From Candidatus Cloacimonadota bacterium (GTDB lineage: Bacteria > Cloacimonadota > Cloacimonadia > JGIOTU-2): 64,000 bases of DNA. Both the position numbers and the translations under genes were made by a program. The DNA lies in the NCBI GenBank assembly GCA_016932035.1, contig JAFGDR010000022.1, forward strand, positions 1,226 to 65,225, given 5' to 3'. This document shows, piece by piece, positions 15,471 to 35,077 of the stretch; position 1 is the first letter of the stretch, and each line of letters begins with the position of its first letter. The notes beneath the pieces are model-generated. The model was given only the letters and a program-made list of their open reading frames with translations, was not told the origin of the DNA and did not search any database.

Positions 15471-15486
15471 CATGAAGGGAGAAGCT

Positions 15487-18539: not shown

Positions 18540-19343
18540 GTGTATACCAATAAGAAATTCAGAATTCTACTCTTGGCATTATTGATAACTGGCATGTTTG
18601 TCGGCAACCTTTGTGCGCAGGATGAAATGACAGTTGAAGACACAACAGCAATTACTGAAGAAGAAGTTGTTGTCGTTGAAGAAACAGTCCAAACTGGAGG
18701 CATTGAAGCCTTCGCACGTAAAATTGTCGGTAGCGGCTTAGTTGATCTTTTCATCAAAGGTGGATGGGTCATGTACCCGATGCTCATTCTCGTTATCTGG
18801 GCATTAGCAACTTCCATCTGGAAAATTATTTCCCTTCGTTACGCAAAAATATCTGTTCACGATTTCTTAGAGAAGCTTCTCCCATTAGTTAAAGAAAAGA
18901 AATTCGATGATGCAATAGCACTGTGTGCGAAGACCCGTGGACCTGTTGCCAGCGTTCTACATGCTGGACTGCTCAAAGCAGATAAAGGTTCAGAAGAAGT
19001 TGAAAAAGCTGTTGAACATGCTGCAATTCTTGAAATGTCATTCCTTGAAAAAGGACTTATTGCTTTGGCAACGACCATTAACCTTGCTCCTATGCTTGGA
19101 TTCCTTGGAACGGTTGTTGGTATGATCCAGGCTTTCGAAGCAATCGCTGCTGCTGGTGAAGTTGAACCAACAATTGTAGCAAGCGGTATTTCAGTAGCTT
19201 TGATCACAACAGCATCAGGTTTGGCAGTCGCTATACCTATCCAGTTATTCAACAATTTCTTTGTATCTGTTATTGATGGATTGATCATCGACATGCAGAC
19301 TGGCTCTGAGAAATTGACGGAAGCATTATTAGAAGTCAAATAG
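18540..19343 (+). CDS. exbB: MotA/TolQ/ExbB proton-channel protein with a signal peptide and an acidic N-terminal extension
   Basis: MotA/ExbB TM core ('LAPMLGFLGTVVGMIQAF'). GTG start with an AGGAGG RBS at 18526-18531. Confidence 0.8.
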   Translation: MYTNKKFRILLLALLITGMFVGNLCAQDEMTVEDTTAITEEEVVVVEETVQTGGIEAFARKIVGSGLVDLFIKGGWVMYPMLILVIWALATSIWKIISLRYAKISVHDFLEKLLPLVKEKKFDDAIALCAKTRGPVASVLHAGLLKADKGSEEVEKAVEHAAILEMSFLEKGLIALATTINLAPMLGFLGTVVGMIQAFEAIAAAGEVEPTIVASGISVALITTASGLAVAIPIQLFNNFFVSVIDGLIIDMQTGSEKLTEALLEVK

Positions 19344-19365: not shown

Positions 19366-19779
19366 ATGAATATTATAAAAGCAAAAAAACCGCGTCTCAA
19401 TCCTAAGATTCCGACATCGTCGATGGCTGACGTGGCATTTCTTTTGCTCGTATTCTTCCTTGTTACAACAAAGTTCGATGTGAAAGAAGGGCTCGGTTTA
19501 GTGCTTCCACCTCACTCCGAATCAGGCGGTCAAAAGGTCAAGATCAAGCAGGAAAACCTCACAAAGATCAAAGTTAATAGAAGAGGTGATATCGCTGTTG
19601 ATGACAAAATTGTCACACCTGCTGAACTTGAGCAGATCGTCGCTGATGTAATCGTGGAAAATCCGAAAATGGTCTTTGTGCTGGAAGCAGATCGTCAGGC
19701 ACGGTACGAAATGATGGTTCGTGCTCTTGATAGATTACTCGCTGCCGGTGCTCAAACCGTATCACTATCTACCCGATAA
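19366..19779 (+). CDS. exbD: Biopolymer transport protein ExbD/TolR (copy 1)
   Basis: 'SMADVAFLLLVFFLVTT' ExbD TM signature, 137 aa. Confidence 0.8.
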   Translation: MNIIKAKKPRLNPKIPTSSMADVAFLLLVFFLVTTKFDVKEGLGLVLPPHSESGGQKVKIKQENLTKIKVNRRGDIAVDDKIVTPAELEQIVADVIVENPKMVFVLEADRQARYEMMVRALDRLLAAGAQTVSLSTR

Positions 19780-19787
19780 GAGGTTCT

Positions 19788-20195
19788 ATGGCAAAAATAG
19801 TAAGAAAAACAAAAATCGATTCTGAGATCCCAAATGCTTCAATGTCCGATATTGCTTTCTTACTGCTGATATTCTTTATGGTTTCAACAACCTTCGTGAA
19901 AGAAAAAGGGTTGAAGGTAGACCTTCCCCGCGCTCAAGCCATTCAGAAGATCAACAGACGCAACGCTGCAACTATTTATGTCAGCCGTTCAGGCCTTATC
20001 TCTATCGATGATTTTGCTACTCCAGTTGACCAGATACAGTATGTTATGCAGGCAAAAGTTGCAGAAAATCCTGCAATGATAACTAGCTTTAGAACTGATA
20101 AGGATACTGAATACGGCATCATGGTAGATGTGATGAACGAGCTTAAGAAAGCAAATGCTCTAAGGGTCTCCTTTGAAGCCCGGAAATTTAGGTAA
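19788..20195 (+). CDS. exbD: Biopolymer transport protein ExbD/TolR (copy 2)
   Basis: 'SMSDIAFLLLIFFMVSTTF' ExbD TM signature, 135 aa. Confidence 0.8.
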   Translation: MAKIVRKTKIDSEIPNASMSDIAFLLLIFFMVSTTFVKEKGLKVDLPRAQAIQKINRRNAATIYVSRSGLISIDDFATPVDQIQYVMQAKVAENPAMITSFRTDKDTEYGIMVDVMNELKKANALRVSFEARKFR

Positions 20196-20225: not shown

Positions 20226-20864
20226 ATGCAAAATAAATCTGTTAATACTCAAAATGATTGGAAAGACGTTGCGAGTTCTTTTTATGAGAAATCATTATCA
20301 CTCGCACTTCTTTTGCTGCTCTTCACTTTCATGGTCTTCCCCAAGATCGAAGTGAAACCTTATCAGCATAAGGCAAAAGAAATCCAAACCATTGAGATCC
20401 CACCCGAAGTACGGCAGAAGTTCAAACCTCCGGAAGAAGTAAAACCTATCATACCTCTCACTATTGAAGAGAGTGATATGGGAGATGAAGATGAGGTTGA
20501 AGAAATCGAGACTATCGGTCCGACCACTCTTGATCTCACAAAACCCCCTCCCGTATCTCGTGAAGGTACAACACCGAAATTTGTTGTTCATGAAGAAGAG
20601 CCAATTCCGATGAAAAAGGTTGAACCCGAATATCCCGATTTTGCTAAAAATGCCGGCATCGAAGGTTCTGTAACACTTCGTGCAGAAGTCTTTGAAGATG
20701 GTTCGGTTGGTGCTGTTGAGATTGTTAAAAGTCTTCAGTCTGGTCCTGGTGGTCTCGACGAAGCAGCAATTGAAGCAGTCAAACAATGGAAATTCATACC
20801 TGCAAAAAATCAAGGAAAACCTGTTGCAGTCTGGGTTACCTTTCCGATAACATTCCAGTTATAA
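20226..20864 (+). CDS. tonB: Energy transducer TonB (Pro/Glu-rich linker plus TonB C-terminal domain)
   Basis: N-terminal anchor, a 'PPEVRQKFKPPEEVKP' linker, and a C-terminal 'EGSVTLRAEVFEDGSVGAVEIVKS...AIEAVKQWKFIPA' TonB_C domain. Confidence 0.75.
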   Translation: MQNKSVNTQNDWKDVASSFYEKSLSLALLLLLFTFMVFPKIEVKPYQHKAKEIQTIEIPPEVRQKFKPPEEVKPIIPLTIEESDMGDEDEVEEIETIGPTTLDLTKPPPVSREGTTPKFVVHEEEPIPMKKVEPEYPDFAKNAGIEGSVTLRAEVFEDGSVGAVEIVKSLQSGPGGLDEAAIEAVKQWKFIPAKNQGKPVAVWVTFPITFQL

Positions 20865-20913
20865 AGTAGTACATATGAAAAATAGAATTTTAAAGAAGAA
20901 AGTAGGAGGTAAT

Positions 20914-23900
20914 ATGCGCTCAAAAATTGGTTTCCTGCCTGTTTTTCTGGTAGTGCTCCTCATGCTGATCCTCTCAAGCTCTGTAGTTTGGGCTCGATCG
21001 GTTAATGGTGGCTCCGGCGCAAATAGAAGACTTGATATCTTTCACTATCATGATGTTGGAAACATATGGTTGCGAGTGAGTAACTATGGTTTCTTTGGCT
21101 CTGGAGATGATGTAGTTCCCCAATGGCCCTCCCTGGAATATCCTGGTGGATCCGGTATCGATTATCTATACCAAGGAGCTCTTTGGTTCGGTGCATGCAA
21201 ACAACGAAGAAATGACTTCGGACAAATGTTGTATTGGCAAGATGCGAACCAAGAGACAACCGGGACAGTTAATATGGGCTATGGAAGGGTTATTGATACA
21301 CTCGTTACTGTTGGTTTTGATGGTGATGATGATTATTACGAATTCCTTCCAGCGTATAATCCGTTAGAAGAAAATGTTCTTGGACCTAAGTACGATATCT
21401 ACAACCTGAAAGATGGTGTTATTGAATCATCGATCCGTGACCAGCAAACTGGTGTGGATGATGATGGAGATGGCAAAATCGATGAAGATCCAGCTGGATT
21501 TGCATTTCCCTATCGTAGTACCGTTCCCTCACAATTCAACACTTTTGAATCAGGCATGAATGAATTCAGAGGTGTAGTAGATAGAACACAGTGTTTACCG
21601 GACGAGATCCTCGCAAACATCGACATCTGGTTCCCTCTCGGTTTCCTTGAACTGGGATATGTAGACCCGGATAGCATCTATAACTTTGCTCAAATACAGG
21701 ACGATGATGGAGATCTGCTTCGTGATGAAGATGGCTATCCTATCTCAGAACAGGACTTCCTTGGCTACTATTATGACTATAGTCCCTTTGGAACACCCGG
21801 CGAACGAGTACAGGAAGCACAATCCTATGCTCAAGAACATATTCCTAATAATATCCGTGTCCGCCAGGTAAGTTTTCAGTGGAGTTATGAATATATTAAA
21901 AATCTGGTTTATGTCGAATTCGATATAACCAACATGAATACTGTCGATACACTCTTCGACTGTGCTATGGCAGTGTACATGGACTGTGATGTTGGTCCTC
22001 AATCATGGGGGGCTCAGGCTCGAGCTGGTGACGATATAAGTAGCTATGTTCCTGGAGAAGGCTTTGAGTTTGCCTATACATACGATGCTGATCAGGATGG
22101 AGGTCTCACCACAGGTTACGTAGGTTCTCGTGTGTGTACTCCTGATCCTGAACAATTAGACTTCGCTTGCTGGACATGGGACGTTGGGGATGGTCCAAGT
22201 CATAATGTTTCGAATGCGGATAGAAACGAAAAATACTGGCTGATGACACATAATAAAGACTCATTCAGCACAAAATACACATCGCTCCGTGAAGATCCTG
22301 GCGCTCAATTAAATGATCCATGCGATACAAGATACCTCTTTGCCTTCTATGGTGATATGCAGGGATTTGATGCACCAACGGATTCAAGCTGGAACCTCCT
22401 TCCCGGTGAAACCATGAAAATCGTTATTGCCGTTTTCCCAGGAGACGATGTTGAAGAGCTGAAGAGAACAGCTATATGGTCAAAAGTATTATATGGTGAA
22501 GCTCAAACTCTTACTACAGTTGTTCTACCGGATACCTTCAAACATTATGAAGCACCAGGACCTCCTGACATTCCACATATGACACTCGATCAATCACTAG
22601 ATGGAGATACAATCTTTGTTTATTGGGACAATCGATCAGAATTTACTGTAGATCGAATGACCCTTACAAAAGAATTTGTAGGTTGGCAGGACAGCATTCC
22701 ATTCCTTGATAGTTACATAGGAAAATATGATGAACAGTTAGCCCATTATGGTTATTTTCCCGAAGAATTTGATCCTTGGCATTGGAATGGTCAAACTTAT
22801 AATATAAATGCTACTGTTAATCCGTGGACAGCGTATCGCTTGCGACATGACTTCCAGGGATACTCGCTTTGGAAAGCTGCAAACTCAGGTGAGCAAGATG
22901 CATACATGAGAATGAATCGATGGGATAAAATAGATACTCAACAGGATATGAGAGATTATAATGTATGTATGAATCTTCCTATTGACAGTATGAATGTTTC
23001 TTACGGTGGACAATTGGGAATCAATAACGGAATTCCAATGGACTACATTGTTGGAACAAATCCAACAGAAGATATCATTTATACTACTGACAGCACAGTG
23101 TACTGGACTGACTATTACAGACTCGACTCGCTATATTCTTTCGTGAAAGTTGTTGATGGAAATATGGTATATGGAATTCCTTTGTATAATATTCTTGATA
23201 GTACAGACCAATGCATACAAGATAGTGTTCAAGAATATTCTACCCTCCCAGAGGAAGAAAGACATAGAAAAGAATCCCTTCTCTTCAAGAATCCCCAAAT
23301 GAGCAATGACCTTTATCTGGACCTCTATGACGACAGATTGATACCTCTACCAGAACATTTAGGTCAGGCACATCCTCAAGGTTTGCTTGAATTGAAAAAG
23401 GAGCGTTTATCTCGAAGATATTATATCAGTGAGATACTCTATCCTGAAAAAGGTGTAGAAAACTACTTTGCTGTCACATCGTTTGACAGAGGTATTCCTT
23501 CTCAAAACTTACAAGCTCTTGAGTCAGGTAAAGATGGAAACCGAATAACAATTTTCGGCGGTCCCTCTGCTGCAACGAATCTTGACGATATCTATGTTGT
23601 CCCAAATCCGTATCTTGGACAAAGTAAATTTGATGGACGACGTGATAAGGATGAGAATGGAGACAGAAGTAAACGTATCTGGTTTGTAAATCTCCCTGAA
23701 AAATGTACAATAAGAATATATACTCTTGCCGGTGATCTCGTTGATGAGATTGAACATGACGGCGTATCAACCGTTGATGTTATTAATCCCAGTAAAGCAA
23801 CACATATAGGTATTGCTCCAGGTGGTATCGAACCTTGGGATCTTCTCTCTAAACACGATCAGATCATTGCAAGCGGTGTGTATCTTTATTCTGTTGAAGA

Positions 23901-23949
23901 CCATGCGACTGGCGATGTTAAAGTCGATAAACTTGTTTTAATTAAATAA
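20914..23949 (+). CDS. Large secreted protein (about 1010 aa) with tandem DxDxDG calcium-binding-loop-like motifs and a T9SS C-terminal sorting domain. Function unknown.
   Basis: Signal peptide. 'DDDGDGKIDEDP' and 'DDDGDLLRDEDGYP' EF-hand-like loops. The C-terminal about 85 aa ('IRIYTLAGDLVDEI...SGVYLYSVE...KLVLIK') match the Por_Secre_tail pattern. GGAGG RBS ahead of ATG 20914. The listed ORF start at 20875 is a likely over-extension. No terminator separates it from tonB. Confidence 0.55.
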   Translation: MRSKIGFLPVFLVVLLMLILSSSVVWARSVNGGSGANRRLDIFHYHDVGNIWLRVSNYGFFGSGDDVVPQWPSLEYPGGSGIDYLYQGALWFGACKQRRNDFGQMLYWQDANQETTGTVNMGYGRVIDTLVTVGFDGDDDYYEFLPAYNPLEENVLGPKYDIYNLKDGVIESSIRDQQTGVDDDGDGKIDEDPAGFAFPYRSTVPSQFNTFESGMNEFRGVVDRTQCLPDEILANIDIWFPLGFLELGYVDPDSIYNFAQIQDDDGDLLRDEDGYPISEQDFLGYYYDYSPFGTPGERVQEAQSYAQEHIPNNIRVRQVSFQWSYEYIKNLVYVEFDITNMNTVDTLFDCAMAVYMDCDVGPQSWGAQARAGDDISSYVPGEGFEFAYTYDADQDGGLTTGYVGSRVCTPDPEQLDFACWTWDVGDGPSHNVSNADRNEKYWLMTHNKDSFSTKYTSLREDPGAQLNDPCDTRYLFAFYGDMQGFDAPTDSSWNLLPGETMKIVIAVFPGDDVEELKRTAIWSKVLYGEAQTLTTVVLPDTFKHYEAPGPPDIPHMTLDQSLDGDTIFVYWDNRSEFTVDRMTLTKEFVGWQDSIPFLDSYIGKYDEQLAHYGYFPEEFDPWHWNGQTYNINATVNPWTAYRLRHDFQGYSLWKAANSGEQDAYMRMNRWDKIDTQQDMRDYNVCMNLPIDSMNVSYGGQLGINNGIPMDYIVGTNPTEDIIYTTDSTVYWTDYYRLDSLYSFVKVVDGNMVYGIPLYNILDSTDQCIQDSVQEYSTLPEEERHRKESLLFKNPQMSNDLYLDLYDDRLIPLPEHLGQAHPQGLLELKKERLSRRYYISEILYPEKGVENYFAVTSFDRGIPSQNLQALESGKDGNRITIFGGPSAATNLDDIYVVPNPYLGQSKFDGRRDKDENGDRSKRIWFVNLPEKCTIRIYTLAGDLVDEIEHDGVSTVDVINPSKATHIGIAPGGIEPWDLLSKHDQIIASGVYLYSVEDHATGDVKVDKLVLIK

Positions 23950-23960
23950 AGGTGGTTAAC

Positions 23961-24998
23961 ATGAAAAGGATAATTTTATTACTATTGGCCCTTTTACTGA
24001 TACCAACCTTGGTTCAAGCTGATATTTTTGCAAAAGTTGGTACTGCCGGTTTACAGTTCTTGAAAATCGGTGTTGATGCTCGTGCTATTGGTATGGCAGA
24101 AGCTTATACTGCATATACAAAGGGAGCTTCATCCACGTATTGGAACGTTGCCGGACTTGCCTATTCTACCGATACAGAGTTATTTTTAAATCATACGCGA
24201 TATGTTGCTGACATTAACTATGATTATCTCACCATTGCCTTCCCAACCTCTTTTGGTGTTTTCGGAATTAACGGTTCACTATTGTATATGGATTGGATGG
24301 ATGTTACTACTGCTGATGAATTTGGTCCAAACGGCGAACAATTTACCTGTAGCGATATGATGGCTGGATTATCTTATGCAACAATGCTGACTGATAAATT
24401 TTCAGTTGGTTTATCATTTAAATATCTAAGGGAAAACCTTGATGAATATGACGTCAACGGCTGGGGTATAGACCTCGGATCACTTTATAATACCGGTTGG
24501 AAAGATCTAACGATTGGAATGAGTTTGAGGAATTTTGGTCCTGAAGTGAAATACACCCTCGATAATGATGGAGATGGGCTTATTGATGAAGACCCATATG
24601 ATCTTCTCGACAATGATGCTGACGGACTTGTTGATGAAGATAGAGAAGAACTCTCTTTCGCACTTCCAATGAACTTCTCTCTTGGTATTGCAATGAGCAT
24701 TTTAGAATCGAACATGCAGTCTCTCGATGCTGTTTTCCAGATTGACAACTGTGTCGATCGTCTTGAAACCTACAATGCTGGACTTGAATACAGAATCGGA
24801 ACCTTCTTCCTGCGTGGTGGATATCAATTTAATCTTGATTGTCAAGCTGCTTCTTTCGGATTGGGCTGGAAACTTGCTACTTCCTTTGCTGTTATGGATA
24901 TTGATGCTGCATACACTCCTTTTGGTAAACTAGAAGAAAAGATGGATGGACAATTCCTGACCGGACCTATACGTCTATCCCTGAAAATGAAATTTTAA
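23961..24998 (+). CDS. FadL-family / PorV-like 14-strand outer-membrane protein with an acidic DxDxDG loop insertion. Candidate T9SS cargo shuttle.
   Basis: Signal peptide, then 'GTAGLQFLKIGVDARAIGMAEAYTA...NVAGLAY', which resembles the FadL N-terminal motif. A 'DNDGDGLIDEDPYDLLDNDADGLVDED' insert. The start lies 9 nt after the upstream stop. Confidence 0.5.
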   Translation: MKRIILLLLALLLIPTLVQADIFAKVGTAGLQFLKIGVDARAIGMAEAYTAYTKGASSTYWNVAGLAYSTDTELFLNHTRYVADINYDYLTIAFPTSFGVFGINGSLLYMDWMDVTTADEFGPNGEQFTCSDMMAGLSYATMLTDKFSVGLSFKYLRENLDEYDVNGWGIDLGSLYNTGWKDLTIGMSLRNFGPEVKYTLDNDGDGLIDEDPYDLLDNDADGLVDEDREELSFALPMNFSLGIAMSILESNMQSLDAVFQIDNCVDRLETYNAGLEYRIGTFFLRGGYQFNLDCQAASFGLGWKLATSFAVMDIDAAYTPFGKLEEKMDGQFLTGPIRLSLKMKF

Positions 24999-25034: not shown

Positions 25035-27203
25035 ATGAAAAAAATTGCTATGTTTAGCGTGATGCTACTCGTGCTCGCTGGAATGGTTTGGGCAAATGAT
25101 ATACCTCAGCCAATCAACAATAATTCATATGTTCCGGCAGAAGCTCCAAAGCATCTCAAAGTTGCCTCTCCAACCCGTAATGACGGCAACTTCGATGTTC
25201 CCGACTGGGAATTCATCCAACAACCAACAACTCTTGCGGGTTTTACTAACTACTATGACTATATGCCAGGTAGTTACTGTGGTCGCCCTTTAATGACTCA
25301 ACCCGATGCATTCGGTGGAGTCTACTTCGTATTCCACGGTCGTCCAAATACAACCGATAATAGAAGAGTTTATTGGGCGTATGTGCATGCTGCTGGTAAT
25401 ATTGAATATGCAACAATTACCACTTCTGACACATGGCAGGGTTATCCTGGAATGACCATGCATCCTGCTTCTGGCGATCCTATTGTCTCATGGCATGATA
25501 TTATGGACTCGGCCACCCCTGAAGACACGAACACTCGTGTAACTTATGATGACTACGGTCTTCTGTTTATACCCGGCTTCTGGAAAACACCTGTAACATT
25601 TGACCAGCCAATTCCTTACGTTGACGAATATATCTGGCCTTATATGTACATTGGAATGGCTCCTGATTATGCTACTACCGGCAACTACCGTGTGTATCAG
25701 ATCAGTGGTCAGAATCCTGATGGTGAAATCGAACACGACATCCTTCGCTGGATCGATGTTCCTGAAGACACCTATGTATATGGCGATCTTGAAATTATGC
25801 TGAACAAGAACAACTGGTCTCCTTACGTAAACATTTCACGTGACTGGTCAGATCCCGCAGCCGGCATCGACTGCCGTCCATATCCCTCATTTGCCGTAGA
25901 TCCATTCACTGCTGGACACGTGGCAATATTCGGTTACGCCGGATACACAAACGGTCTTGTTGGTGGTGAAGTTGTACCTCAGGGCTTCTACGTTTGGGAC
26001 TCTTATGATGGTGGAGCAACATGGGATTATGCAAACTTCCATTCATATCAAACAGATGTTGGTATGTACAATGAATATGTCATGTGGGCTGTTGACAATG
26101 TTCCTGGTTTTGTAGATGACAGCAGTATTCCTTATCCTGAACTTCATGTCTGGATCGGTTGGCCCGGTAACCAGCATTCAACCCACAGAACAGCAACTTT
26201 TGATAGTGAAGGAAATCTTCACCTTCCAGAACAATTCTGGATAAGTAACGTTGATGGTGCAGCAGGAAATGCATCGTACTGGCCATATTATCTCTTCCAA
26301 TATCAAGTTGAAGTTGTTTACAAAACTGATGGCACCTGGGAAATCCGCGAAGTTCCGAATCTACCTGGTGTCGATGCTATGAGCGGACACACAGTACCAT
26401 GGGAAATCGAACCCGTTAGTGGTGATACTCTCATTTACCCTTGGCTTACCATGCCATTTACCGATATTACAACCGTCGGTTTCCATGAAAATACTCAACG
26501 AAATGCTGCTAACTTTGAAAACAGCTGGATGGTTCAGGTATGGGATGACGGCACAAAAACACTCATGGCTGAAAATGCTATTCCTGGATATGACGCATAT
26601 GCAACTCATCCAATTCTTTATGTATCTGCAACCAATAACAACGGTGAAAACTGGAGTGCTCCAATTGAGCTTTCCGATATTTACAGTACTGCATTCCCCG
26701 GTTTTGCAGACATGATCACCATGTATCCATATATCAATCCAACGATCAAAGATCTTGGTGATGGCTGGGGACAGATCGACATGTACTTCTTTGATGATAA
26801 TGATTATGGTAGCTCGATTCAGCAGATGGGTCCGGCAACTGGTGGTGAAATGGTCTATTGTTCATTCAAGATCGATTTTGCAAATATGATCGTATCAACA
26901 GATCCTTCACAGTCACAACCGGAAGCAACTATGACACTTCGCAATGTTCCGAATCCTTTCTTCTCACATACTCAAATCCAGTTCTCGGCTAATGTTGGTG
27001 TTGAAAATGCAAAAGTCACGATCTATAATACTAAAGGTCAGCTTGTAAAATCTATTGATGCAATTGCCGATTCTCATACTGCAGGACATGCAATGTGGGA
27101 TGGTACCGATGAGTTTGGTAAAGATGTAGCAAATGGAATCTACTTCTATAAAGTAGAAACCAATGGTGCTACAATTGCCAAAAAGATGATGCTCAATAGA
27201 TAA
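25035..27203 (+). CDS. Secreted BNR/Asp-box beta-propeller protein with a T9SS C-terminal sorting domain (paralog 1 of 3)
   Basis: Signal peptide. Asp-box motifs 'SYDGGATWD' and 'TNNNGENWS'. C-terminal 'NPFFSHTQIQF...VTIYNTKGQLV...NGIYFYKV...KKMMLNR'. GGAGG RBS. Confidence 0.6.
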   Translation: MKKIAMFSVMLLVLAGMVWANDIPQPINNNSYVPAEAPKHLKVASPTRNDGNFDVPDWEFIQQPTTLAGFTNYYDYMPGSYCGRPLMTQPDAFGGVYFVFHGRPNTTDNRRVYWAYVHAAGNIEYATITTSDTWQGYPGMTMHPASGDPIVSWHDIMDSATPEDTNTRVTYDDYGLLFIPGFWKTPVTFDQPIPYVDEYIWPYMYIGMAPDYATTGNYRVYQISGQNPDGEIEHDILRWIDVPEDTYVYGDLEIMLNKNNWSPYVNISRDWSDPAAGIDCRPYPSFAVDPFTAGHVAIFGYAGYTNGLVGGEVVPQGFYVWDSYDGGATWDYANFHSYQTDVGMYNEYVMWAVDNVPGFVDDSSIPYPELHVWIGWPGNQHSTHRTATFDSEGNLHLPEQFWISNVDGAAGNASYWPYYLFQYQVEVVYKTDGTWEIREVPNLPGVDAMSGHTVPWEIEPVSGDTLIYPWLTMPFTDITTVGFHENTQRNAANFENSWMVQVWDDGTKTLMAENAIPGYDAYATHPILYVSATNNNGENWSAPIELSDIYSTAFPGFADMITMYPYINPTIKDLGDGWGQIDMYFFDDNDYGSSIQQMGPATGGEMVYCSFKIDFANMIVSTDPSQSQPEATMTLRNVPNPFFSHTQIQFSANVGVENAKVTIYNTKGQLVKSIDAIADSHTAGHAMWDGTDEFGKDVANGIYFYKVETNGATIAKKMMLNR

Positions 27204-27225
27204 GCCCGTCTTTGCATAAATATTT

Positions 27226-27259
27226 AGCCTGCTCATTTGGTTGAGCAGGCTTTTTTTTT
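27226..27259 (+). terminator. Rho-independent terminator after paralog 1
   Basis: agcctgctca/tgagcaggct 10-bp stem plus a 9-T run. Confidence 0.65.
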
Positions 27260-27415
27260 GCCTATAACTTCTTGACAAAAAAAATATCAATTTTTTCTTC
27301 CATTTATCATAGTATTTTTGATGTAAAAACAGAAATTTCGCGTATGTCGAATTTCATTATTTGTTATCTTCTTTGACAGGTCAAAAAAAATCATTAAAAA
27401 ATTACGGAGGTTTAC

Positions 27416-29497
27416 ATGAAAAAGATTGGAGTAATTTTACTCTTTTGCTTTCTTCTATCTATAAGCGTACTTCATGCAGAATTTATGAACCCTGACGGTT
27501 CAGAACGAACTGCTATTACAGACATCAACGTCGGCAAATTAGTTCCTATAACACAAGTCGATCATCGAGAAAACACACCGGTTCCCGACTACAGCTTCTA
27601 TACAAATCCAACTACGATCATGACGTCCTACTATGACTATATGCCCGGCTCATATGAAGGATATCCATTACAGAAGCAGACCGATAATGGAGATGGATTG
27701 TATATTACATGGTTTGGCACAGCAACAACGACCGCAACACGTCGTCAATATTACGCATATGCTGATGCATTTGGAAGTATTGGTGGCAACTGGGGAACAA
27801 TTTCAACATACGATCGGACCCAGGGATACGGAAGTGTAGCTGTTCATCCCGCTACTGGTGACTGTTTTGCAACCTGGCATGAAAATCCATCAGGATCAAA
27901 TTATGGTTGTGTAATCTGTTATGATGACTATTCCCTACTTAGCATTCCGGGTTTTTGGTCTTCAGTTACTTTTATACCTTCTCCACTTCCTGATGAATAT
28001 ATCTGGCCCTATGTCTATGTTGGTCCTTCTCCAAATGGAGATGGTTGGATTCGGTTGTATCATATCTCAAAAAACTACACTCACGATGCATGGGATCATC
28101 CGTGTGAAGATCCTCGAATCATGTATATTGATGTTGAGAATACTCTTTTTGCTGATATGACTGTTATCCTGAACCTTAACAATTGGACTACAGTAAATCC
28201 AATGTATTATTGGAGAGCAAAGTCATGCCGTCCTCAATCACAAGCGTTTGCAATTGATCACAGTACTCCCGGACACGTTGCTATCGTAGGATACTGTTCA
28301 TGGCTTGAAGGTGATCTCGGTGATATGCCTGTTGATCCAGGTTTCTATATTTTTGAATCTTTCGACTATGGAACAACATGGGATACGGCAAATCTGCATG
28401 GAGATGGTCCGCAAGACTTTATTTATGCGGTTGAGAATATTCCTCATTTCACAGATAATAGCGGAAACCTTATCGACAGTATTAAAGTAGATTCATACGG
28501 ATGGCATGATACTGCCCAGTTTGATGCAAATGGTGTTGCTCATCTTTGTTACCTGCAACAGTATGGATATACCGATGATGCAGGAGACAGCTATTATTTT
28601 AATCATTTCCTCCCGCAAGCAGAAGCAGTTTGGGATGGTATAGCGTGGGATTGGCATAACGTGCCAGCCTTCCCGGGTATCGATCCCTGGACCGGAAGAG
28701 ATGTTCCTTGGGAAATAGTTGGTAATGATACACTTCTCTACGTCTCTGTTTCTTATAATAAATATCCAGAAGATTCTGAAATATTTCACCAGAACACCCA
28801 GAGAAATGCCATCAATAAAGAAAACAATTGGATGGTACAATTCTGGACTGACGGAACGTATGTTCAACTTGCAGAAGACGGTGACCCAGCATATGCAGCA
28901 TATGCACAACACCCGATCCTCTATCTCTCAGTATCTTCAAACAATGGTGATACATGGTCGGAACCTATTGAACTTTCGGATATTTATAGTACTCAATTTG
29001 ACTTCTCGGGACAGATAACAGTCTATCAAAATTTGTACAACTACATTGAAGCTATTAATGACTCGGTTGGTCGAGTTCATATCATGTACTATGATGATAA
29101 CTCATTCGGCTGCTATATCCGTTCAGGAGCTGGGCAGGATGTTGGCGGTCAAATCACCTATTGTTCAGTTGATATTGTATTCCCACCGTTTTCAAATGAT
29201 CCTCAGCCCTCTGTTCCTGTTACCTCACTTTCAAACTATCCCAATCCATTCTTTGCGTCAACTACCATTAATTTCACGGCAAAGAAAGCATATCAAAATG
29301 CGGAGATCAGTGTGTATAATACAAGGGGACAGCTGATCAACACTTTGCATGTGAATCACGGTGACAATCCTTCAGAAGGATACGCTGTATGGAATGGTAA
29401 AGATGCAGCTGGTAAGAATGTTGCTAACGGTATTTATTTCTATAAGGTAGATGTCGATGGCTCATCTCTTACCCAAAAAATGATGTTAACAAGATAA
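27416..29497 (+). CDS. Secreted BNR/Asp-box beta-propeller protein with a T9SS C-terminal sorting domain (paralog 2 of 3)
   Basis: Signal peptide. Asp-boxes 'SFDYGTTWD' and 'SSNNGDTWS'. C-terminal 'NPFFASTTINF...ISVYNTRGQLI...NGIYFYKVDVDG...KMMLTR'. GGAGG RBS. Confidence 0.6.
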   Translation: MKKIGVILLFCFLLSISVLHAEFMNPDGSERTAITDINVGKLVPITQVDHRENTPVPDYSFYTNPTTIMTSYYDYMPGSYEGYPLQKQTDNGDGLYITWFGTATTTATRRQYYAYADAFGSIGGNWGTISTYDRTQGYGSVAVHPATGDCFATWHENPSGSNYGCVICYDDYSLLSIPGFWSSVTFIPSPLPDEYIWPYVYVGPSPNGDGWIRLYHISKNYTHDAWDHPCEDPRIMYIDVENTLFADMTVILNLNNWTTVNPMYYWRAKSCRPQSQAFAIDHSTPGHVAIVGYCSWLEGDLGDMPVDPGFYIFESFDYGTTWDTANLHGDGPQDFIYAVENIPHFTDNSGNLIDSIKVDSYGWHDTAQFDANGVAHLCYLQQYGYTDDAGDSYYFNHFLPQAEAVWDGIAWDWHNVPAFPGIDPWTGRDVPWEIVGNDTLLYVSVSYNKYPEDSEIFHQNTQRNAINKENNWMVQFWTDGTYVQLAEDGDPAYAAYAQHPILYLSVSSNNGDTWSEPIELSDIYSTQFDFSGQITVYQNLYNYIEAINDSVGRVHIMYYDDNSFGCYIRSGAGQDVGGQITYCSVDIVFPPFSNDPQPSVPVTSLSNYPNPFFASTTINFTAKKAYQNAEISVYNTRGQLINTLHVNHGDNPSEGYAVWNGKDAAGKNVANGIYFYKVDVDGSSLTQKMMLTR

Positions 29498-29511
29498 CAA
29501 AAAGATAATCA

Positions 29512-29547
29512 GGATGCCTGTTCTAAACGGGCAGGCATCCTCTTTTT
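29512..29547 (+). terminator. Rho-independent terminator after paralog 2
   Basis: ggatgcctg/caggcatcc stem plus a T-run. Confidence 0.6.
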
Positions 29548-29626
29548 ACGGAGGTCTTTTTCGGAGTTTTTATGATGTATACTACTTCCTATAAAGACCA
29601 TCAAGTATGATCTGAAAGGAGAAAAA

Positions 29627-31708
29627 ATGAAAACGATTATCTTTACAATTATTCTATTAAGCGTTTTAATCTTTCCAATTCAGGCAAAAACTCTCAATCC
29701 AAATCCCAATGAAGCAATTCCTTTTTCTGAATATCCCGATCTAAAAATTGTTCCTTTTAATACTACTTCAAATAGAGAGAACTATCCGGTTCCGGACTTC
29801 AGTTTTAAAACAGTTCCAACAACGATCATGACATCATATTATGACTATATGCCTGGATCGTATGAAGGATTTCCCTATGGGCTGCAGTCAACAATTGGTA
29901 GTGGATATTATCTGACGTGGTTCGGCACTGCTTCTACAACGGCAAACCGTAGGCAGTATTACGCTTATATTAATAGTTCAGGAGTTAATGAATCATGGGG
30001 CACCATATCGAACTATGATATCTGGCAAGGTTACGGAAACTGCACGGTTCATCCCGCAACCGGTGATTGCTTTGCAACCTGGCATGAAGATGGAGATGCA
30101 ACAGGCTACTTTGGCACAACATTTGTTTATGATGATTATGCTTTATTAGGCATACCGGGATTCTGGTCTACGGTCACATATCTTCCACCAAATCTTCCTG
30201 ATGAATATAATTGGCCATACTTCTATGTTGGTCCTTCACCAATGGGAACAGATTACCTTCGTTTGTACCAGGTGTCTAAAAATTTTACGAATGATGCTTG
30301 GGAGAATCCCTGTGAAGATATGCGCATCATGTATATCGATCTGGAAAACACACCTACTGCCGATCTTTCACCTATGTTGAATATGGCTAATTGGACAACT
30401 CAATGGCCAATGTATTACTGGAGATACAAATCATGTCGTCCCTATTCCCAGGCATTTGCAATCGATTATGAAAATCCCGGTCGAGTTGCGATCATCGGAT
30501 ATGCGGTATGGCTTGAAGGTGATCTTGGTGACATGCCGGTCGATGAAGGATTTTTCGTATGGGAATCCAACGACTATGGAACGACCTGGGATGGAAGCAA
30601 TATTCACGGTGATGGTCCAGGCGAAATAATATATGTTGTGGAAAATATTCCCCAGTTTGAGGACAATAGCGGCAATATTGTAGATGAAGTAGAAGTTCAA
30701 TTGGCTGGATGTCATAACACTGCTGTTTATGACAATGACGGCTCTCTCCATCTAACCTTTTTGCAGCAATATGGTTTTACAGATGATGCCGGTGATTTCT
30801 ACTACTATAATCATTTCCTTCCCCAGGCAGAAGCTGTCTGGACTGGAACTGAGTGGGAATATCATGAAGTACCTGGTATGCCCGGTATTGACCCCTGGTC
30901 TGGGCACACTGTTCCTTGGGAAATTGTCGGTAATGACACGATCCTTTATACTACGGTCGGTTTCAGCAAATATACGGGCACCTCAAATATTTTCCACGAA
31001 AACAATCAGCGAAATACCGTGAACCTTGATAACAACTGGATGGTGCAGCTCTGGTCAGATGGAACATATGTTCAGCTGGCTGAGGATGGTGATCCGGCAT
31101 ATCAAGCTTATGCAGAACACCCAATCCTCTACATTTCTGTATCCTCAGACAATGGTCAAACCTGGTCAGATGTCATCGAATTAACTGACATATATAGCAC
31201 ATTGTACAACTTCTCAAATGAGATAACCGTCTATCCTAACCTTAGTAATCATATTGTTGATATGGGTAATAACTATGGACTTGTTTATCTATATTACTAT
31301 GATGACAATTCTTTTGGCTCATTTGCACAAAGTGGGCAAGGTCAGAATACCGGTGGTCAACTCAACTATTGTGAAGTGCAAATTCTGTTCCCGGATTCTA
31401 TATCGATAGATCCAGCTCATTATAATCCGATCTCATTAGTTTCCAATAATCCCAATCCTTTCTTCGAAACGACCAGGATTAATTTCACGACCAAGAAAAC
31501 ATATCAAGAAGCTGCAATCAAGATCTATAACCCTAAAGGACAACTCATTAACACCCTAGAAGTGAACCATGGTGGTAATCCATTTGAAGGATTTGGCATT
31601 TGGAATGGGAAGGATCTGAAAGGTAAAGATGTTACAAATGGGATCTACCTTTATAGGGTGGAAGTAGATGGATCTTCCTATGTAAACAAGATGTTACTTG
31701 CTCGATAA
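29627..31708 (+). CDS. Secreted BNR/Asp-box beta-propeller protein with a T9SS C-terminal sorting domain (paralog 3 of 3)
   Basis: Signal peptide. Asp-boxes 'SNDYGTTWD' and 'SSDNGQTWS'. C-terminal 'NPFFETTRINF...IKIYNPKGQLI...NGIYLYRVEVDG...KMLLAR'. High identity to paralog 2. Confidence 0.6.
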   Translation: MKTIIFTIILLSVLIFPIQAKTLNPNPNEAIPFSEYPDLKIVPFNTTSNRENYPVPDFSFKTVPTTIMTSYYDYMPGSYEGFPYGLQSTIGSGYYLTWFGTASTTANRRQYYAYINSSGVNESWGTISNYDIWQGYGNCTVHPATGDCFATWHEDGDATGYFGTTFVYDDYALLGIPGFWSTVTYLPPNLPDEYNWPYFYVGPSPMGTDYLRLYQVSKNFTNDAWENPCEDMRIMYIDLENTPTADLSPMLNMANWTTQWPMYYWRYKSCRPYSQAFAIDYENPGRVAIIGYAVWLEGDLGDMPVDEGFFVWESNDYGTTWDGSNIHGDGPGEIIYVVENIPQFEDNSGNIVDEVEVQLAGCHNTAVYDNDGSLHLTFLQQYGFTDDAGDFYYYNHFLPQAEAVWTGTEWEYHEVPGMPGIDPWSGHTVPWEIVGNDTILYTTVGFSKYTGTSNIFHENNQRNTVNLDNNWMVQLWSDGTYVQLAEDGDPAYQAYAEHPILYISVSSDNGQTWSDVIELTDIYSTLYNFSNEITVYPNLSNHIVDMGNNYGLVYLYYYDDNSFGSFAQSGQGQNTGGQLNYCEVQILFPDSISIDPAHYNPISLVSNNPNPFFETTRINFTTKKTYQEAAIKIYNPKGQLINTLEVNHGGNPFEGFGIWNGKDLKGKDVTNGIYLYRVEVDGSSYVNKMLLAR

Positions 31709-31733
31709 CATACTCAAAAGTATACAACAAACC

Positions 31734-31763
31734 AAAGCCTGTTCTCACGAGCAGGCTTTTTTC
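31734..31763 (+). terminator. Rho-independent terminator after paralog 3
   Basis: aagcctg...caggctt stem plus tttttt. Confidence 0.55.
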
Positions 31764-31830
31764 AATCATTAGTTGACAAAAATTAAGCTCGGAATAAATC
31801 ACTTATAAAATTAATCCCAAGGAGGATGTA

Positions 31831-32433
31831 ATGTTAAAAAAAAGTGTTTTATTATTGGCACTTGTTGCACTTATTGTGTCATGCGGAGGACCTACCAAGC
31901 AGGTTTCCCGCGTGGGGGTCGATGAGACTATTGACCTTAGTGGCCGCTGGAACGACTCAGATGCTCGTATGGTTTCTGAAAACATCGTTGAGGATGTTCT
32001 CGATGGTGCATGGCTAATGAACTGGCTGGATGAATATGATGAGAAACCAATTGTTATCGTTGGAACAATCGGAAACAAAACAAGCGAACATATCAATACA
32101 GAGACATTTTCTACTGATATCGAAAGGGAACTTGTCAATTCTGGAGAAGTTCGTTTTGTTGCTGCCAAAGAACAGCGTGATGAAATTCGCGATGAACGTC
32201 TTGATCAGCAAAGTCAGGCAACAGAAGAAACAGCTAAAAGACTTGCCCAGGAACTCGGCGCTGATTTTATGCTTCAGGGAACGCTTTCATCTATCGAAGA
32301 TTCAGTTGATGGTAAAAAAGTAGTGTATTATCAGGCAGATATGAACCTGGTAAATCTCGAAACGAGTGAGATCGTTTGGATGGGATCAAAAAAGATCAAA
32401 AAATTTATGGAACAATCAAAACTTAAATGGTAA
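31831..32433 (+). CDS. LpoB-like lipoprotein (COG3417 penicillin-binding-protein activator LpoB / TolB-N-like fold family)
   Basis: Lipobox 'IVSCGG'. Colinear with E. coli LpoB: 'KPIVIVGTIGNKT', 'RELVNSGEVRFV', 'ELGADFMLQGTLSS', 'ADMNLVNLETSEIVWMGSK'. AAGGAGG RBS. Confidence 0.6.
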   Translation: MLKKSVLLLALVALIVSCGGPTKQVSRVGVDETIDLSGRWNDSDARMVSENIVEDVLDGAWLMNWLDEYDEKPIVIVGTIGNKTSEHINTETFSTDIERELVNSGEVRFVAAKEQRDEIRDERLDQQSQATEETAKRLAQELGADFMLQGTLSSIEDSVDGKKVVYYQADMNLVNLETSEIVWMGSKKIKKFMEQSKLKW

Positions 32434-32438
32434 TCATA

Positions 32439-34040
32439 ATGAAAAAAATATTATTTTCAACTATCATATTATCTCTTGTTATATTGTGCTTTTTAGGATG
32501 CTCGAGCATGAAGACATCAAAAGCTCAATATGCAGGAATGATGGAAAATCTCCGTGCAAATGACTTCAAAACTTGTTTAACTCAAATCGAAGAAGCAAAA
32601 GAGAAGCATTATAAAGAAAAGGAGAAAGTGCTGTTCTACCTTGATGCAGGCATGCTTTATCATTATTGTGGTGATTACCGGAAGAGTAATGAATACCTTG
32701 AAAAAGCTGAATTTGCTATCGAAGATCTCTACACTAAAAGTATCGGGAAAGCTGCAGCTTCTGTCCTTCTCAATGATAATGCACTCGATTATTTCGGTGA
32801 AGATTATGAAGACATCTATCTGAATATCTTTAAAGCACTGAACTATCTTCATCTGAATGATCCTGAAGATGCGTTCGTCGAAATTCGTAGGATCAATAAC
32901 AAACTCAATCTTCTGGAAGACAAGTATAAAAAAATCGCTGATGAGTATAATAAATCCGATGATAAGAAAAGGGATTTCAAGATAGGTGATATAAAATTTT
33001 ATAATTCGGCACTTGCCCGTTACTTGAGTATGCTTCTTTATTACACTGAAGGAAAATATGACGACGCCAGGATCGACCTGAAAGAAATCAGAGAAGCCAT
33101 CGAAAATCAGCCGACAGTCTATAACTTCGAAGTACCACCTCTTGAATCACATATTGCAAAATCAGACAGTATTCCCATCTACTTCCTATCTTTTGTTGGT
33201 AATTCTCCAGACAAGAAATCAAACACACTCTGGGTGCATACAGAAAAAGACATGCTGATCATTGCGACATCTAAAGAAGTTTCTGAAAACAGTAAAAATC
33301 CTGATATTAAAGATGAAGCAGGTAAACTTGCAAAAGAAACTGGTGAATTTGTATCGTCTGTTGGTAATATCTTTAAGAAAACCGATACTGAAGAGAAATC
33401 AAGTTCATCGAGCAGTAGCTCTTCCAGTAAAAAATCATCCGTTTCAATACCACACAAAGAGACCGAAACTGAAGTAGAAACAAAAAATGACAGTCAATAT
33501 GAAGGCACATTGGATATCATCGAATGGGAAGATATGGAAGCTGGGTACCATTTTAAATTTGATCTTCCCTACATGGACTTGATCGGTACAGACATTGCAA
33601 AGATCGCGGTCCTCATTAATGACCAGATGGCCGTTGAGTTAATACCACTTGAAAGTATGGAACAGGTTGCTTTCATTACATATAAAATTAAAGAACCACT
33701 AATATATCTAAAGACAATCACCCGAACAGTTGTAAAAGGAATTCTCGCAGAAAGTGCAAAACAGGAGATGGTAAAACAGACAGGTGATAATCTTTTTGGT
33801 AAACTTGCCATGATTGCTACTGATGTCGGTGTGGACGCAACAGAAAACGCTGATTTAAGAATATCTCGTTTTTTCCCGGCGAAAGCTTTTGTTGGGCATT
33901 TCTTACTACCAGAGGGTATATATAACATTCGTATAAATTATTATAATTCAGACAACAAACTCGTTTATTCGGATTTGAGAAATAAACAACACATAACCAA
34001 AAACGGATTACAGTTGTTTGAGTCGTTTTATTTAGATTAG
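32439..34040 (+). CDS. Lipoprotein with an N-terminal TPR-like region, a poly-Ser linker and a C-terminal domain of unknown function
   Basis: Lipobox 'FLGCSS'. TPR-like 'LFYLDAGMLYHYCGDYRKSNEYLEKA'. 'SSSSSSSSSKKSS' linker. The listed ORF start at 32427 overlaps the upstream gene. Confidence 0.4.
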   Translation: MKKILFSTIILSLVILCFLGCSSMKTSKAQYAGMMENLRANDFKTCLTQIEEAKEKHYKEKEKVLFYLDAGMLYHYCGDYRKSNEYLEKAEFAIEDLYTKSIGKAAASVLLNDNALDYFGEDYEDIYLNIFKALNYLHLNDPEDAFVEIRRINNKLNLLEDKYKKIADEYNKSDDKKRDFKIGDIKFYNSALARYLSMLLYYTEGKYDDARIDLKEIREAIENQPTVYNFEVPPLESHIAKSDSIPIYFLSFVGNSPDKKSNTLWVHTEKDMLIIATSKEVSENSKNPDIKDEAGKLAKETGEFVSSVGNIFKKTDTEEKSSSSSSSSSSKKSSVSIPHKETETEVETKNDSQYEGTLDIIEWEDMEAGYHFKFDLPYMDLIGTDIAKIAVLINDQMAVELIPLESMEQVAFITYKIKEPLIYLKTITRTVVKGILAESAKQEMVKQTGDNLFGKLAMIATDVGVDATENADLRISRFFPAKAFVGHFLLPEGIYNIRINYYNSDNKLVYSDLRNKQHITKNGLQLFESFYLD

Positions 34041-34048
34041 GATAGACT

Positions 34049-35077
34049 ATGAAAAAAATCGTACTATTATTCGTTCTTATATTTATGTCTTGTGCTCCTT
34101 CAATGGTAACAGCAAAAAAGAACAAAACGCCAGATTGGATCATGAATCCTCAGACCAAATACAAGGATTCGTACTACCTTTCGGCTGTTGGATCCGGTGA
34201 TACAAAAAAATCTGCTGAGAAAGACGCATACTCAAATCTCTCCAAAATATTTCAAGCTGAGATAAAATCAGATGAAACACTCGTCCAAAAATTTGAAGAG
34301 ACCACCATTGGTGACAAAACATCACTTTCTGCTGAGGAGAAGATGCGTAATCTCACACAGATTCAGAGTGAGCAGACCTTAAAAAACGTTAAAGTGGGTG
34401 ATTCTTTTTTTGATCCCAATAGTGGTGAGTACTACGTCATCGTATATTTAAATAGGAACGAAACGGAAGACATTTATCATAACGAGATCTTTCAAAACAC
34501 ACAGAAGATAGATCAATATTACGCTCAGTTTGAAGCCGGGTTATCTAAACTCGACAAGCTTAAATATCTCAGCGAAGCGATTGATTTTGCCGAAAAGAAT
34601 GAGATACTGAATGCACAACTTCGTATTATATCACCTTCCAATGCTGGAGTAGAACTCAAACAACCTCTTGAGAAACTTGTTGCTGAGAGAAATACTTTTG
34701 CGCGATCGATCCATGTTATTGTTGAAGGTTCGGGTGAATACAAAGAATATCTCGATGACTATCTTACAGAGGTTTTTAATAATTTTGGTTTCTCGGTTTA
34801 TGATTCACCAAAGGATGCAGACTATATTGATTTCCACATAGAGAGCTCTCTTTCAATATCTCAGATCGACCTTAATCGCGATGAGGAATTCGTGCGTTGG
34901 GAGTTATCAATTACTATAATTGATAAGATCAGCAATGCAGAAGAAGTTGTTTATACAAAGAGTGATCGTGAAGGTCATCTAAATTTAACTGAAGCAGAAA
35001 ATAGAGCTTTGCGTTCAGTAAAAAAAGTTATCCAAAAAGATTTCTTTAAATTCTTTGCAGATAAGTATTTGTCATAA
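34049..35077 (+). CDS. LPP20-family lipoprotein-like protein
   Basis: Lipobox 'FMSCAP'. 'PDWIMNPQTKYKDSYYLSAVGSGDTKKSAEKDAYSNLSKIFQAEI' matches the LPP20 (PF02169-type) N-terminal pattern. Confidence 0.5.
   Translation: MKKIVLLFVLIFMSCAPSMVTAKKNKTPDWIMNPQTKYKDSYYLSAVGSGDTKKSAEKDAYSNLSKIFQAEIKSDETLVQKFEETTIGDKTSLSAEEKMRNLTQIQSEQTLKNVKVGDSFFDPNSGEYYVIVYLNRNETEDIYHNEIFQNTQKIDQYYAQFEAGLSKLDKLKYLSEAIDFAEKNEILNAQLRIISPSNAGVELKQPLEKLVAERNTFARSIHVIVEGSGEYKEYLDDYLTEVFNNFGFSVYDSPKDADYIDFHIESSLSISQIDLNRDEEFVRWELSITIIDKISNAEEVVYTKSDREGHLNLTEAENRALRSVKKVIQKDFFKFFADKYLS

Follow-up and report, generated by a model that had tools for sequence, protein, structure and literature searches.

Three similar open reading frames stand one behind the other on the plus strand of a 64,000-nucleotide stretch of DNA (the window, at its full length) from a Candidatus Cloacimonadota bacterium (GenBank assembly GCA_016932035.1, contig JAFGDR010000022.1, positions 1,226 to 65,225). 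They raise the question of what kind of protein these genes encode, how long ago the copies separated, and what they might do for the cell. Anaerobic digesters and anoxic sediments are rich in Cloacimonadota, but few of these bacteria have been cultured, and their surface biology is known mostly by inference from genomes. An initial annotation of the three genes, which we call P1 (25035-27203, 722 aa), P2 (27416-29497, 693 aa) and P3 (29627-31708, 693 aa), had described them as recently duplicated genes for sialidase-like propeller proteins that carry a type IX secretion system (T9SS) C-terminal domain (CTD).

We addressed this question by sequence comparison, structure prediction and analysis of gene order. 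The results support the view that P1, P2 and P3 arose as tandem copies of one gene, whose product is a surface protein exported by the T9SS and built around a beta-propeller with Asp-boxes. The array is a real yet ordinary kind of tandem exported surface-protein paralogs, and it is old and stable, which corrects the reading of a recent duplication with an assembly risk. What stays of interest is that the propeller family is unnamed, that it occurs in two domains of life, and that a conserved operon surrounds P1. We consider it probable that the three proteins, as old paralogs of a surface family expanded in the Cloacimonadota, act as a T9SS-anchored binding or hydrolytic module serving TonB-dependent uptake.

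Domain organization of P1, P2 and P3

Pairwise alignment showed that the three proteins are homologous and colinear end to end, with 41.6% amino acid identity for P1/P2 and P1/P3 and 62.4% for P2/P3. The tandem, colinear arrangement that had been proposed was thus correct for three plus-strand open reading frames alignable over their full length. The long identical peptide blocks they had been said to share are in fact short, at 9-10 aa in the pairs with P1 and 18 aa in P2/P3. All three proteins have the same layout, in which a putative Sec signal peptide is followed by a beta-propeller of ~540 aa (residues 55-595 in P2) that a short linker joins to a T9SS CTD of type A. The N-termini, read by eye, begin with MKK or MKT and continue with a hydrophobic stretch and a small-residue site (VWA/N in P1, LHA/E in P2 and IQA/K in P3).

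The CTD regions (nt 26949-27200 in P1, 29237-29494 in P2 and 31451-31705 in P3) gave the sole matches above cut-off to the Pfam and NCBIfam libraries in P1 and P2. P1 and P2 scored 36.6 and 32.3 bits against TIGR04183 (cut-off 23), and 30.6 and 31.1 bits against PF18962, Por_Secre_tail (cut-off 27). The CTD of P3 fell just under both curated cut-offs (21.2 and 21.7 bits), yet it is 66% identical to that of P2 and colinear with those of P1 and P2. The canonical CTD of about 85 aa that had been assigned to each protein was therefore recovered at threshold in two of them, with the third just below. The same region also scored as FlgD_ig, above cut-off in P1 and P2 and just below it in P3, as was common in the Cloacimonadota matches here. 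In an AlphaFold2 model of P2, the CTD (residues 602-691) formed a seven-strand sandwich, which fits the 3+4 beta-sandwich of the canonical T9SS CTD (PMC11285876).

In these features the proteins resemble the type A cargo of the T9SS in Bacteroidota and other FCB phyla, which likewise combines a functional domain with a C-terminal CTD of ~85 aa, behind a Sec signal peptide that is putative in P1-P3. The CTDs of P1-P3 have the PNPF and GIYFYK motifs and the predicted seven-strand sandwich of such cargo, and the window also encodes SprA and a PorV-family protein. They differ from it in that their cargo domain belongs to an unannotated family, in the additional FlgD_ig score of the CTD, and in the slightly low-scoring CTD of P3. 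SprA is the outer-membrane translocon of the T9SS. The T9SS core components detected within the window were SprA itself (2076-8327, minus strand, a 2082-aa open reading frame with a SprA_N match) and a PorV/PorQ-family protein (23952-24998), whose gene is discussed below.

Age of the duplications and selection on the copies

P2 and P3 had been described as very close at the nucleotide level, which was taken to indicate a recent tandem duplication and a hazard of assembly collapse. Their nucleotide identity is 64.3% overall and 43% at third codon positions. A repeat search found no stretches better than 72% identity over ~190 nt between P2 and P3, and no two copies share an exact nucleotide match longer than 18 nt. 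Synonymous differences among the copies are saturated (pS 0.74-0.77). Each copy also has its own ortholog in a related genome, GCA_049903145.1 (L001), where the same locus holds four propeller copies; the one-to-one orthologs are 83% (P1), 79% (P2) and 71% (P3) identical to the window proteins, and the fourth L001 paralog is 37-49% identical to any window copy. P1, P2 and P3 are therefore anciently diverged tandem paralogs. Both recent duplication and assembly collapse are ruled out by the nucleotide identity, the repeat search and the saturation of synonymous sites, and with copies this divergent, each with an ortholog of its own, the assembly carries no collapse hazard.

The duplication had also been thought to be diversifying. 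We estimated dN/dS between the window and L001 orthologs and obtained 0.07-0.11 for the propeller genes and 0.03-0.06 for flanking genes, which means that selection on the propeller genes is purifying and only mildly relaxed. In the same comparison the propeller orthologs diverge faster (71-83% identity) than the flanking genes (85-91%). The fourth L001 paralog (L001 12184-14271, 695 aa) is located between the P3 ortholog and an LpoB-like gene; no remnant of it was found in the 122-nt window spacer between P3 and the LpoB-like gene.

The propeller domain and its relation to sialidases

The first ~600 residues of P1-P3 matched no Pfam or NCBIfam model above threshold, and the Pfam BNR model gave a sub-threshold match in P1 only (E 0.071). 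Among 64 relatives scanned, weak BNR matches occurred in 28 and BNR_2 matches in six (best BNR_2 E 0.0018), none of them above threshold. The Asp-boxes that had been noted in each protein are present as a pair. The first, with the strict motif SxDxGxTW, begins at residue 323 of P1 (nt 26001-26024), 315 of P2 (28358-28381) and 314 of P3 (30566-30589). The second, of a looser form except in P3, where it too is strict, begins at residue 533 of P1 (26631-26654), 507 of P2 (28934-28957) and 506 of P3 (31142-31165). In P2 the two boxes read SFDYGTTW and SSNNGDTW, and the predicted strands E309-315 and E501-507 each end on the first residue of a box. Across 85 family members the first box keeps its S, D, G and W, and in the second the G and W are also conserved.

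The full-length AlphaFold2 model of P2, built on an alignment of 85 sequences, was confident (pLDDT 92). In it, residues 59-588 form an all-beta domain, which a linker of low confidence (589-601) connects to the CTD sandwich described above. The propeller modelled alone reached pLDDT 95.6 and pTM 0.94. The propeller model has ~32 strands in ~540 aa, and its Asp-boxes are 192 residues apart, or about three blades. As the core of a six-bladed propeller consists of 24 strands, this strand count and spacing suggest that the modelled propeller has seven or eight blades rather than six; the estimate is based on these two quantities. Comparison of the family profile with itself (hhalign) found only the two Asp-box segments alike (E 0.06) and gave no internal periodicity from which blades could be counted.

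Many polar residues are invariant or almost invariant in family members down to 27% identity: R213, D239 and D561, followed by D74, Q88, R109, H155, D170, R272 and D479. The three conserved Arg residues (109, 213 and 272) all lie within the first half of the propeller domain. No Glu is conserved in at least 90% of members; E156, E231, E314 and E403 reach 80-88%.

We then asked how close this domain is to the GH33 sialidases, with which P1-P3 would share a six-bladed fold, an Arg triad and a Tyr/Glu nucleophile if they were true exo-sialidases. The best E-values in a Foldseek search of the PDB did belong to this group, namely the Micromonospora viridifaciens sialidase 1EUT (2e-10), Streptococcus pneumoniae NanA 3H71 (1.2e-8) and human NEU2 1SO7 (6e-8). 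Like P1-P3, these enzymes are all-beta propellers with SxDxGxTW Asp-boxes at strand ends, and in 1EUT an Ig-like beta-sandwich follows the propeller, as the CTD does in P1-P3. The propeller family also has weak sequence matches to the Pfam BNR/BNR_2 sialidase clan, and its profile gave weak matches to PDB sialidases around an Asp-box (E 0.005-0.8 over ~55 residues). However, TM-scores to the sialidases were only 0.30-0.39 when normalised by the query and at most 0.54 when normalised by the target, at 9-12% identity, and the highest query-normalised TM-score in the search (0.46) was to a CylK chain. Alignment with NEU2 by hhalign, using a sequence confirmed against the PDB, covered 22 columns of a single Asp-box. 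The P1-P3 propeller is larger (~540 versus ~360 aa), with ~32 predicted strands instead of 24, and its family has only two Asp-boxes, 192 residues apart. No BNR_2 or sialidase domain of Pfam matched P1-P3 above threshold, and no FRIP motif was seen on reading their translations. Neither an Arg triad nor a Tyr/Glu signature was found in the sequences or at family-conserved positions, a comparison made at the sequence level with no residue-level structural alignment; the family lacks a Glu conserved at the 90% level, and its conserved Arg residues are confined to the first half of the domain. The six-bladed, sialidase-like propeller with an Arg triad envisaged in the initial annotation is not supported by these comparisons, and we regard it as highly improbable that P1-P3 are exo-sialidases of the GH33 type. 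Judged from sequence and predicted structure, the propeller appears to be a very remote and atypical member of the Asp-box (BNR/sialidase-like) superfamily.

The conserved operon around P1

P1 had been placed in the operon upstream of it, and the gene order agrees: a gap of 36 nt, which holds no terminator, separates it from the PorV-like gene, and in two other genomes the two genes are linked just as tightly. The genes of the cluster upstream of P1 all lie on the plus strand with short spacers. They encode, in order, a TonB-dependent receptor with CarboxypepD_reg, Plug and barrel domains by Pfam (15472-18519), an ExbB/MotA-family proton channel (18540-19343, MotA_ExbB E 6e-30), two ExbD paralogs, TonB (20226-20864, TonB_C E 1e-21, the C-terminal domain), a 1024-aa orphan protein (20875-23949) conserved across Cloacimonadota, and a PorV/PorQ-family outer-membrane beta-barrel (23952-24998). 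The second ExbD (19788-20195) was identified by Pfam (E 1e-24); the first (19366-19779, 137 aa) was assigned by its position and its resemblance to the neighbouring ExbD, and two ExbD genes are located at the matching position in L001 and in a distant Cloacimonadaceae contig, L012. The barrel scored 186 bits against NF033709 PorV_fam (cut-off 90) and below both the PorV and PorQ equivalog cut-offs, with 99.6 bits for the PorQ model versus 76 for PorV.

The whole cluster, from the receptor to a propeller protein with CTD, recurs in L012 (4487-16354), where identity to the window is 53% for the 1024-aa protein, 49% for the PorV-like protein, 41% for the receptor and 27-29% for the propeller protein. 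This synteny shows P1, by gene order, as the last gene of a conserved TonB/PorV-like operon and in the ancestral position. The glyS, aminotransferase, PfkB and PurM genes upstream of the cluster are also conserved between the window and L012.

The 1024-aa orphan has two acidic motifs resembling DDDGDGxIDED and a T9SS-CTD-like tail, which weakly matches the CTD of PorZ. It has 578 homologs, with at least 49% identity among the 120 listed. Searches of Pfam, NCBIfam and the PDB with this protein gave no match, and neither did a PDB search with a 30-member profile or a Pfam search of the 30 members. Its gene directly precedes the PorV/PorQ-like gene in all three TonB-cluster loci examined (the window, L001 and L012). 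We also considered whether the orphan might be a divergent PorU sortase; it has no likeness beyond the CTD to the genuine C25 PorU of another locus, L010.

Distribution of the propeller family

P2 is identical to a protein encoded in a Candidatus Cloacimonetes MAG with JW794_ locus tags. A word-indexed search found 145 relatives, and a full HMMER scan at E <=1e-30 raised the number to 269 clusters (50% identity), mostly from Cloacimonadota. Counts from the HMMER scan at E 1e-3 and 1e-10 were not used, because CTD columns had leaked into the profile and added CTD and PKD noise. In every member scanned for domains the propeller stands at the N-terminus, and in longer members PKD, CarboxypepD_reg, dockerin or CHB_HEX_C_1/Fn3_assoc domains separate it from the CTD. 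PKD, CarboxypepD_reg, dockerin and CHB_HEX_C_1 are stalk modules typical of extracellular enzymes. The domain scan of longer members left out two giant proteins, P0173 (6259 aa) and P0242 (2608 aa), which contain one propeller copy each, that of P0173 at residues 1874-2411.

Copy number can be high. Two adjoining loci, L011 and L013 (JGI 3300082323 Ga0675941_000160, ~267-308 kb), together hold eight family members and one 1024-aa paralog within ~30 kb. This second copy of the 1024-aa family, in L013, is flanked by four propeller genes, with four more in the adjoining array. The array is interspersed with two sigma-54 two-component systems, each a TPR histidine kinase with a Sigma54_activat response regulator. 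Elsewhere, family members stand alone or in groups of two or three, in gene neighbourhoods that are unrelated to these. With ~270 clusters, up to eight copies in ~30 kb, and fusions to dockerin and PKD domains, the propeller family is a major unnamed component of the exported proteome of Cloacimonadota. A search of the literature on Cloacimonadota T9SS or propeller proteins returned only general statements.

A subset of the family has PKD domains instead of the CTD; it includes proteins of Thermoplasmatota archaea, one of them on a 1.9-Mb contig. The archaeal members observed were L004 10001-12355 (Thermoplasmatales archaeon, CP070798.1), P0046, P0081 and P0085. Their identity to P2 and P3 is 47-49%, which exceeds that of many paralogs from Cloacimonadota. 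In a neighbour-joining tree (computed without support values) the PKD-bearing, CTD-less set formed one clade nested inside the bacterial radiation. This nesting, with PKD in place of the T9SS CTD, suggests a transfer from bacteria to archaea in which the anchoring module was swapped.

Proposed role of the propeller proteins and alternative explanations

We propose that the propeller proteins would be exported by Sec through their N-terminal signal peptide, and that the type A CTD would then be recognised by the T9SS, for which the SprA translocon is encoded in the window and a candidate PorV/PorQ-like shuttle directly upstream of P1. Each protein would be displayed on, or released from, the outer membrane. 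At the cell surface its propeller most likely binds or cleaves a polymer from outside the cell, either a glycan or a peptide, and the products would be imported by the co-encoded TonB-dependent transporter. P1 is the ancestral operon copy and P2 and P3 are old extra copies behind it, and paralogs that cover different substrates would widen the range of the system. The conserved operon of receptor, PorV/Q-like barrel, 1024-aa protein and propeller thus offers a concrete, testable unit for substrate capture. In its logic, and in that only, it resembles the polysaccharide-utilisation loci of Bacteroidota, which likewise encode a CarboxypepD_reg-Plug-barrel receptor together with surface proteins for export. 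It differs from these loci in that it has neither SusD nor a known glycoside hydrolase, its surface proteins would be T9SS-anchored and not lipoproteins, and ExbBD and TonB are encoded in the operon.

Several points weigh against this proposal. Because family members also sit in unrelated contexts, the link to a TonB system is limited to one type of locus, and because archaeal members exist, the propeller domain works without a T9SS. No catalytic motif of a known enzyme family was identified in the propeller, and the promoter and terminator assignments described below are pattern matches only. We consider more tentatively, as a rather doubtful extension, that the propeller is a new extracellular enzyme family, such as a glycoside hydrolase or lyase with a seven- or eight-bladed Asp-box propeller as its scaffold. 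Such an enzyme would be T9SS-anchored in Cloacimonadota and PKD-bearing in Thermoplasmatota, and its ancestral copy would act with the 1024-aa orphan and the PorV/Q-like barrel to feed a dedicated TonB-dependent transporter. If this were true, the system would be a T9SS-based counterpart of the Sus paradigm of Bacteroidota.

P1-P3 might instead be non-enzymatic adhesins or S-layer-like coat proteins, with the copies serving antigenic or phage-receptor variation. The many paralogs per genome, often arrayed as in L011 and L013, are as expected of such proteins, as are the difference in copy number between related genomes (three versus four), the faster divergence of propeller orthologs relative to flanking genes, and the lack of a recognised catalytic motif. 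However, selection on the genes is strongly purifying (dN/dS ~0.1), neither near-identical cassettes nor recombination tracts are present, and dozens of polar positions show little or no variation throughout the family, its archaeal members included. Since so many polar residues are invariant while ortholog dN/dS remains at 0.07-0.11, sequence conservation points to a specific conserved site in preference to a merely variable adhesin, and we think the adhesin or coat explanation unlikely. A role for the P1-type copy within the T9SS machinery itself must also be weighed, as PorZ, a component of the attachment complex, combines two propellers with a CTD. P1 could in that case be a PorZ-like protein paired with the PorQ/PorV-like barrel, and the 1024-aa orphan a PorU-like partner. 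The propeller-plus-CTD architecture recalls PorZ, the barrel encoded by the adjoining gene has a higher score for the PorQ model than for that of PorV, their linkage is kept throughout the phylum, and L010 has a genuine Peptidase_C25 PorU gene immediately before a family member, which is followed by the LpoB/unknown/LPP20 trio of genes described below. Nevertheless, the PorZ model NF052228 matched the CTD only (model positions 673-740 of 757), at 22.8-27.2 bits against a cut-off of 260, and PorZ was absent from the top 50 fold matches. P1-P3 have one propeller each, which matches those of PorZ in neither sequence nor fold, and neither the sequence of the 1024-aa protein nor its profile resembled PorU. 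Moreover, the family is multi-copy, variable and fast-evolving, is fused to dockerin and PKD stalks, and is found in archaea that lack the T9SS. A PorZ-like role for P1 is accordingly very unlikely in our judgement, and uptake-related binding or hydrolysis remains the explanation we prefer.

Transcription signals and downstream genes

The spacers after P1, P2 and P3 measure 212, 129 and 122 nt, and in each of them a hairpin with a T-run was found, in agreement with the earlier suggestion that every gene ends at a terminator of its own. Putative terminator 1 (27226-27260, plus strand, hairpin 27226-27251) has a 10-bp stem with six GC pairs and T9 (-21.7 kcal/mol for segment 27204-27275). Putative terminator 2 (29511-29546, plus strand, hairpin 29511-29541) has a 13-bp stem with seven GC pairs and CTTTTT (-25.0 kcal/mol for segment 29498-29560). 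The third (31734-31762, plus strand, hairpin 31734-31759), which the consensus scan missed and which was found by folding the spacer, has an 11-bp stem with one G-U pair and a T-run (-17.8 kcal/mol for segment 31709-31775). P2 and P3 had been thought to be transcribed separately. For P2 this is plausible, as the gene follows a terminator and a promoter-like site (27373-27402, plus strand; TTGACA, 18 nt, AAAAAT), a consensus match that may not be the promoter type of this phylum; for P3 it found no such backing, with no promoter-like site evident in the 129-nt spacer. No Rfam RNA family was detected in 15000-36000.

Downstream of P3, on the plus strand, lies a trio of genes for an LpoB-like lipoprotein, a 537-aa protein without assignment and an LPP20 lipoprotein (31831-35077). 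The same trio, with a middle protein of ~470-540 aa, follows a propeller gene in three genomes: that of the window, L001 (14394-17565) and L010 (8486-11561). One of the trio-linked propeller proteins is only ~32% identical to the window copies.

Two short repeated elements were also observed. A box, TTGACAAAAA, lies directly after terminators 1 and 3 (27256-27281 and 31757-31782), and is TTGACA promoter-like as a pattern match only. The 41 nt before the starts of P1 and P2 (24988-25028 and 27374-27414) are 76% identical and include an ACGGAGG ribosome-binding site (ATCATTAA..AATTACGGAGG.TTA).

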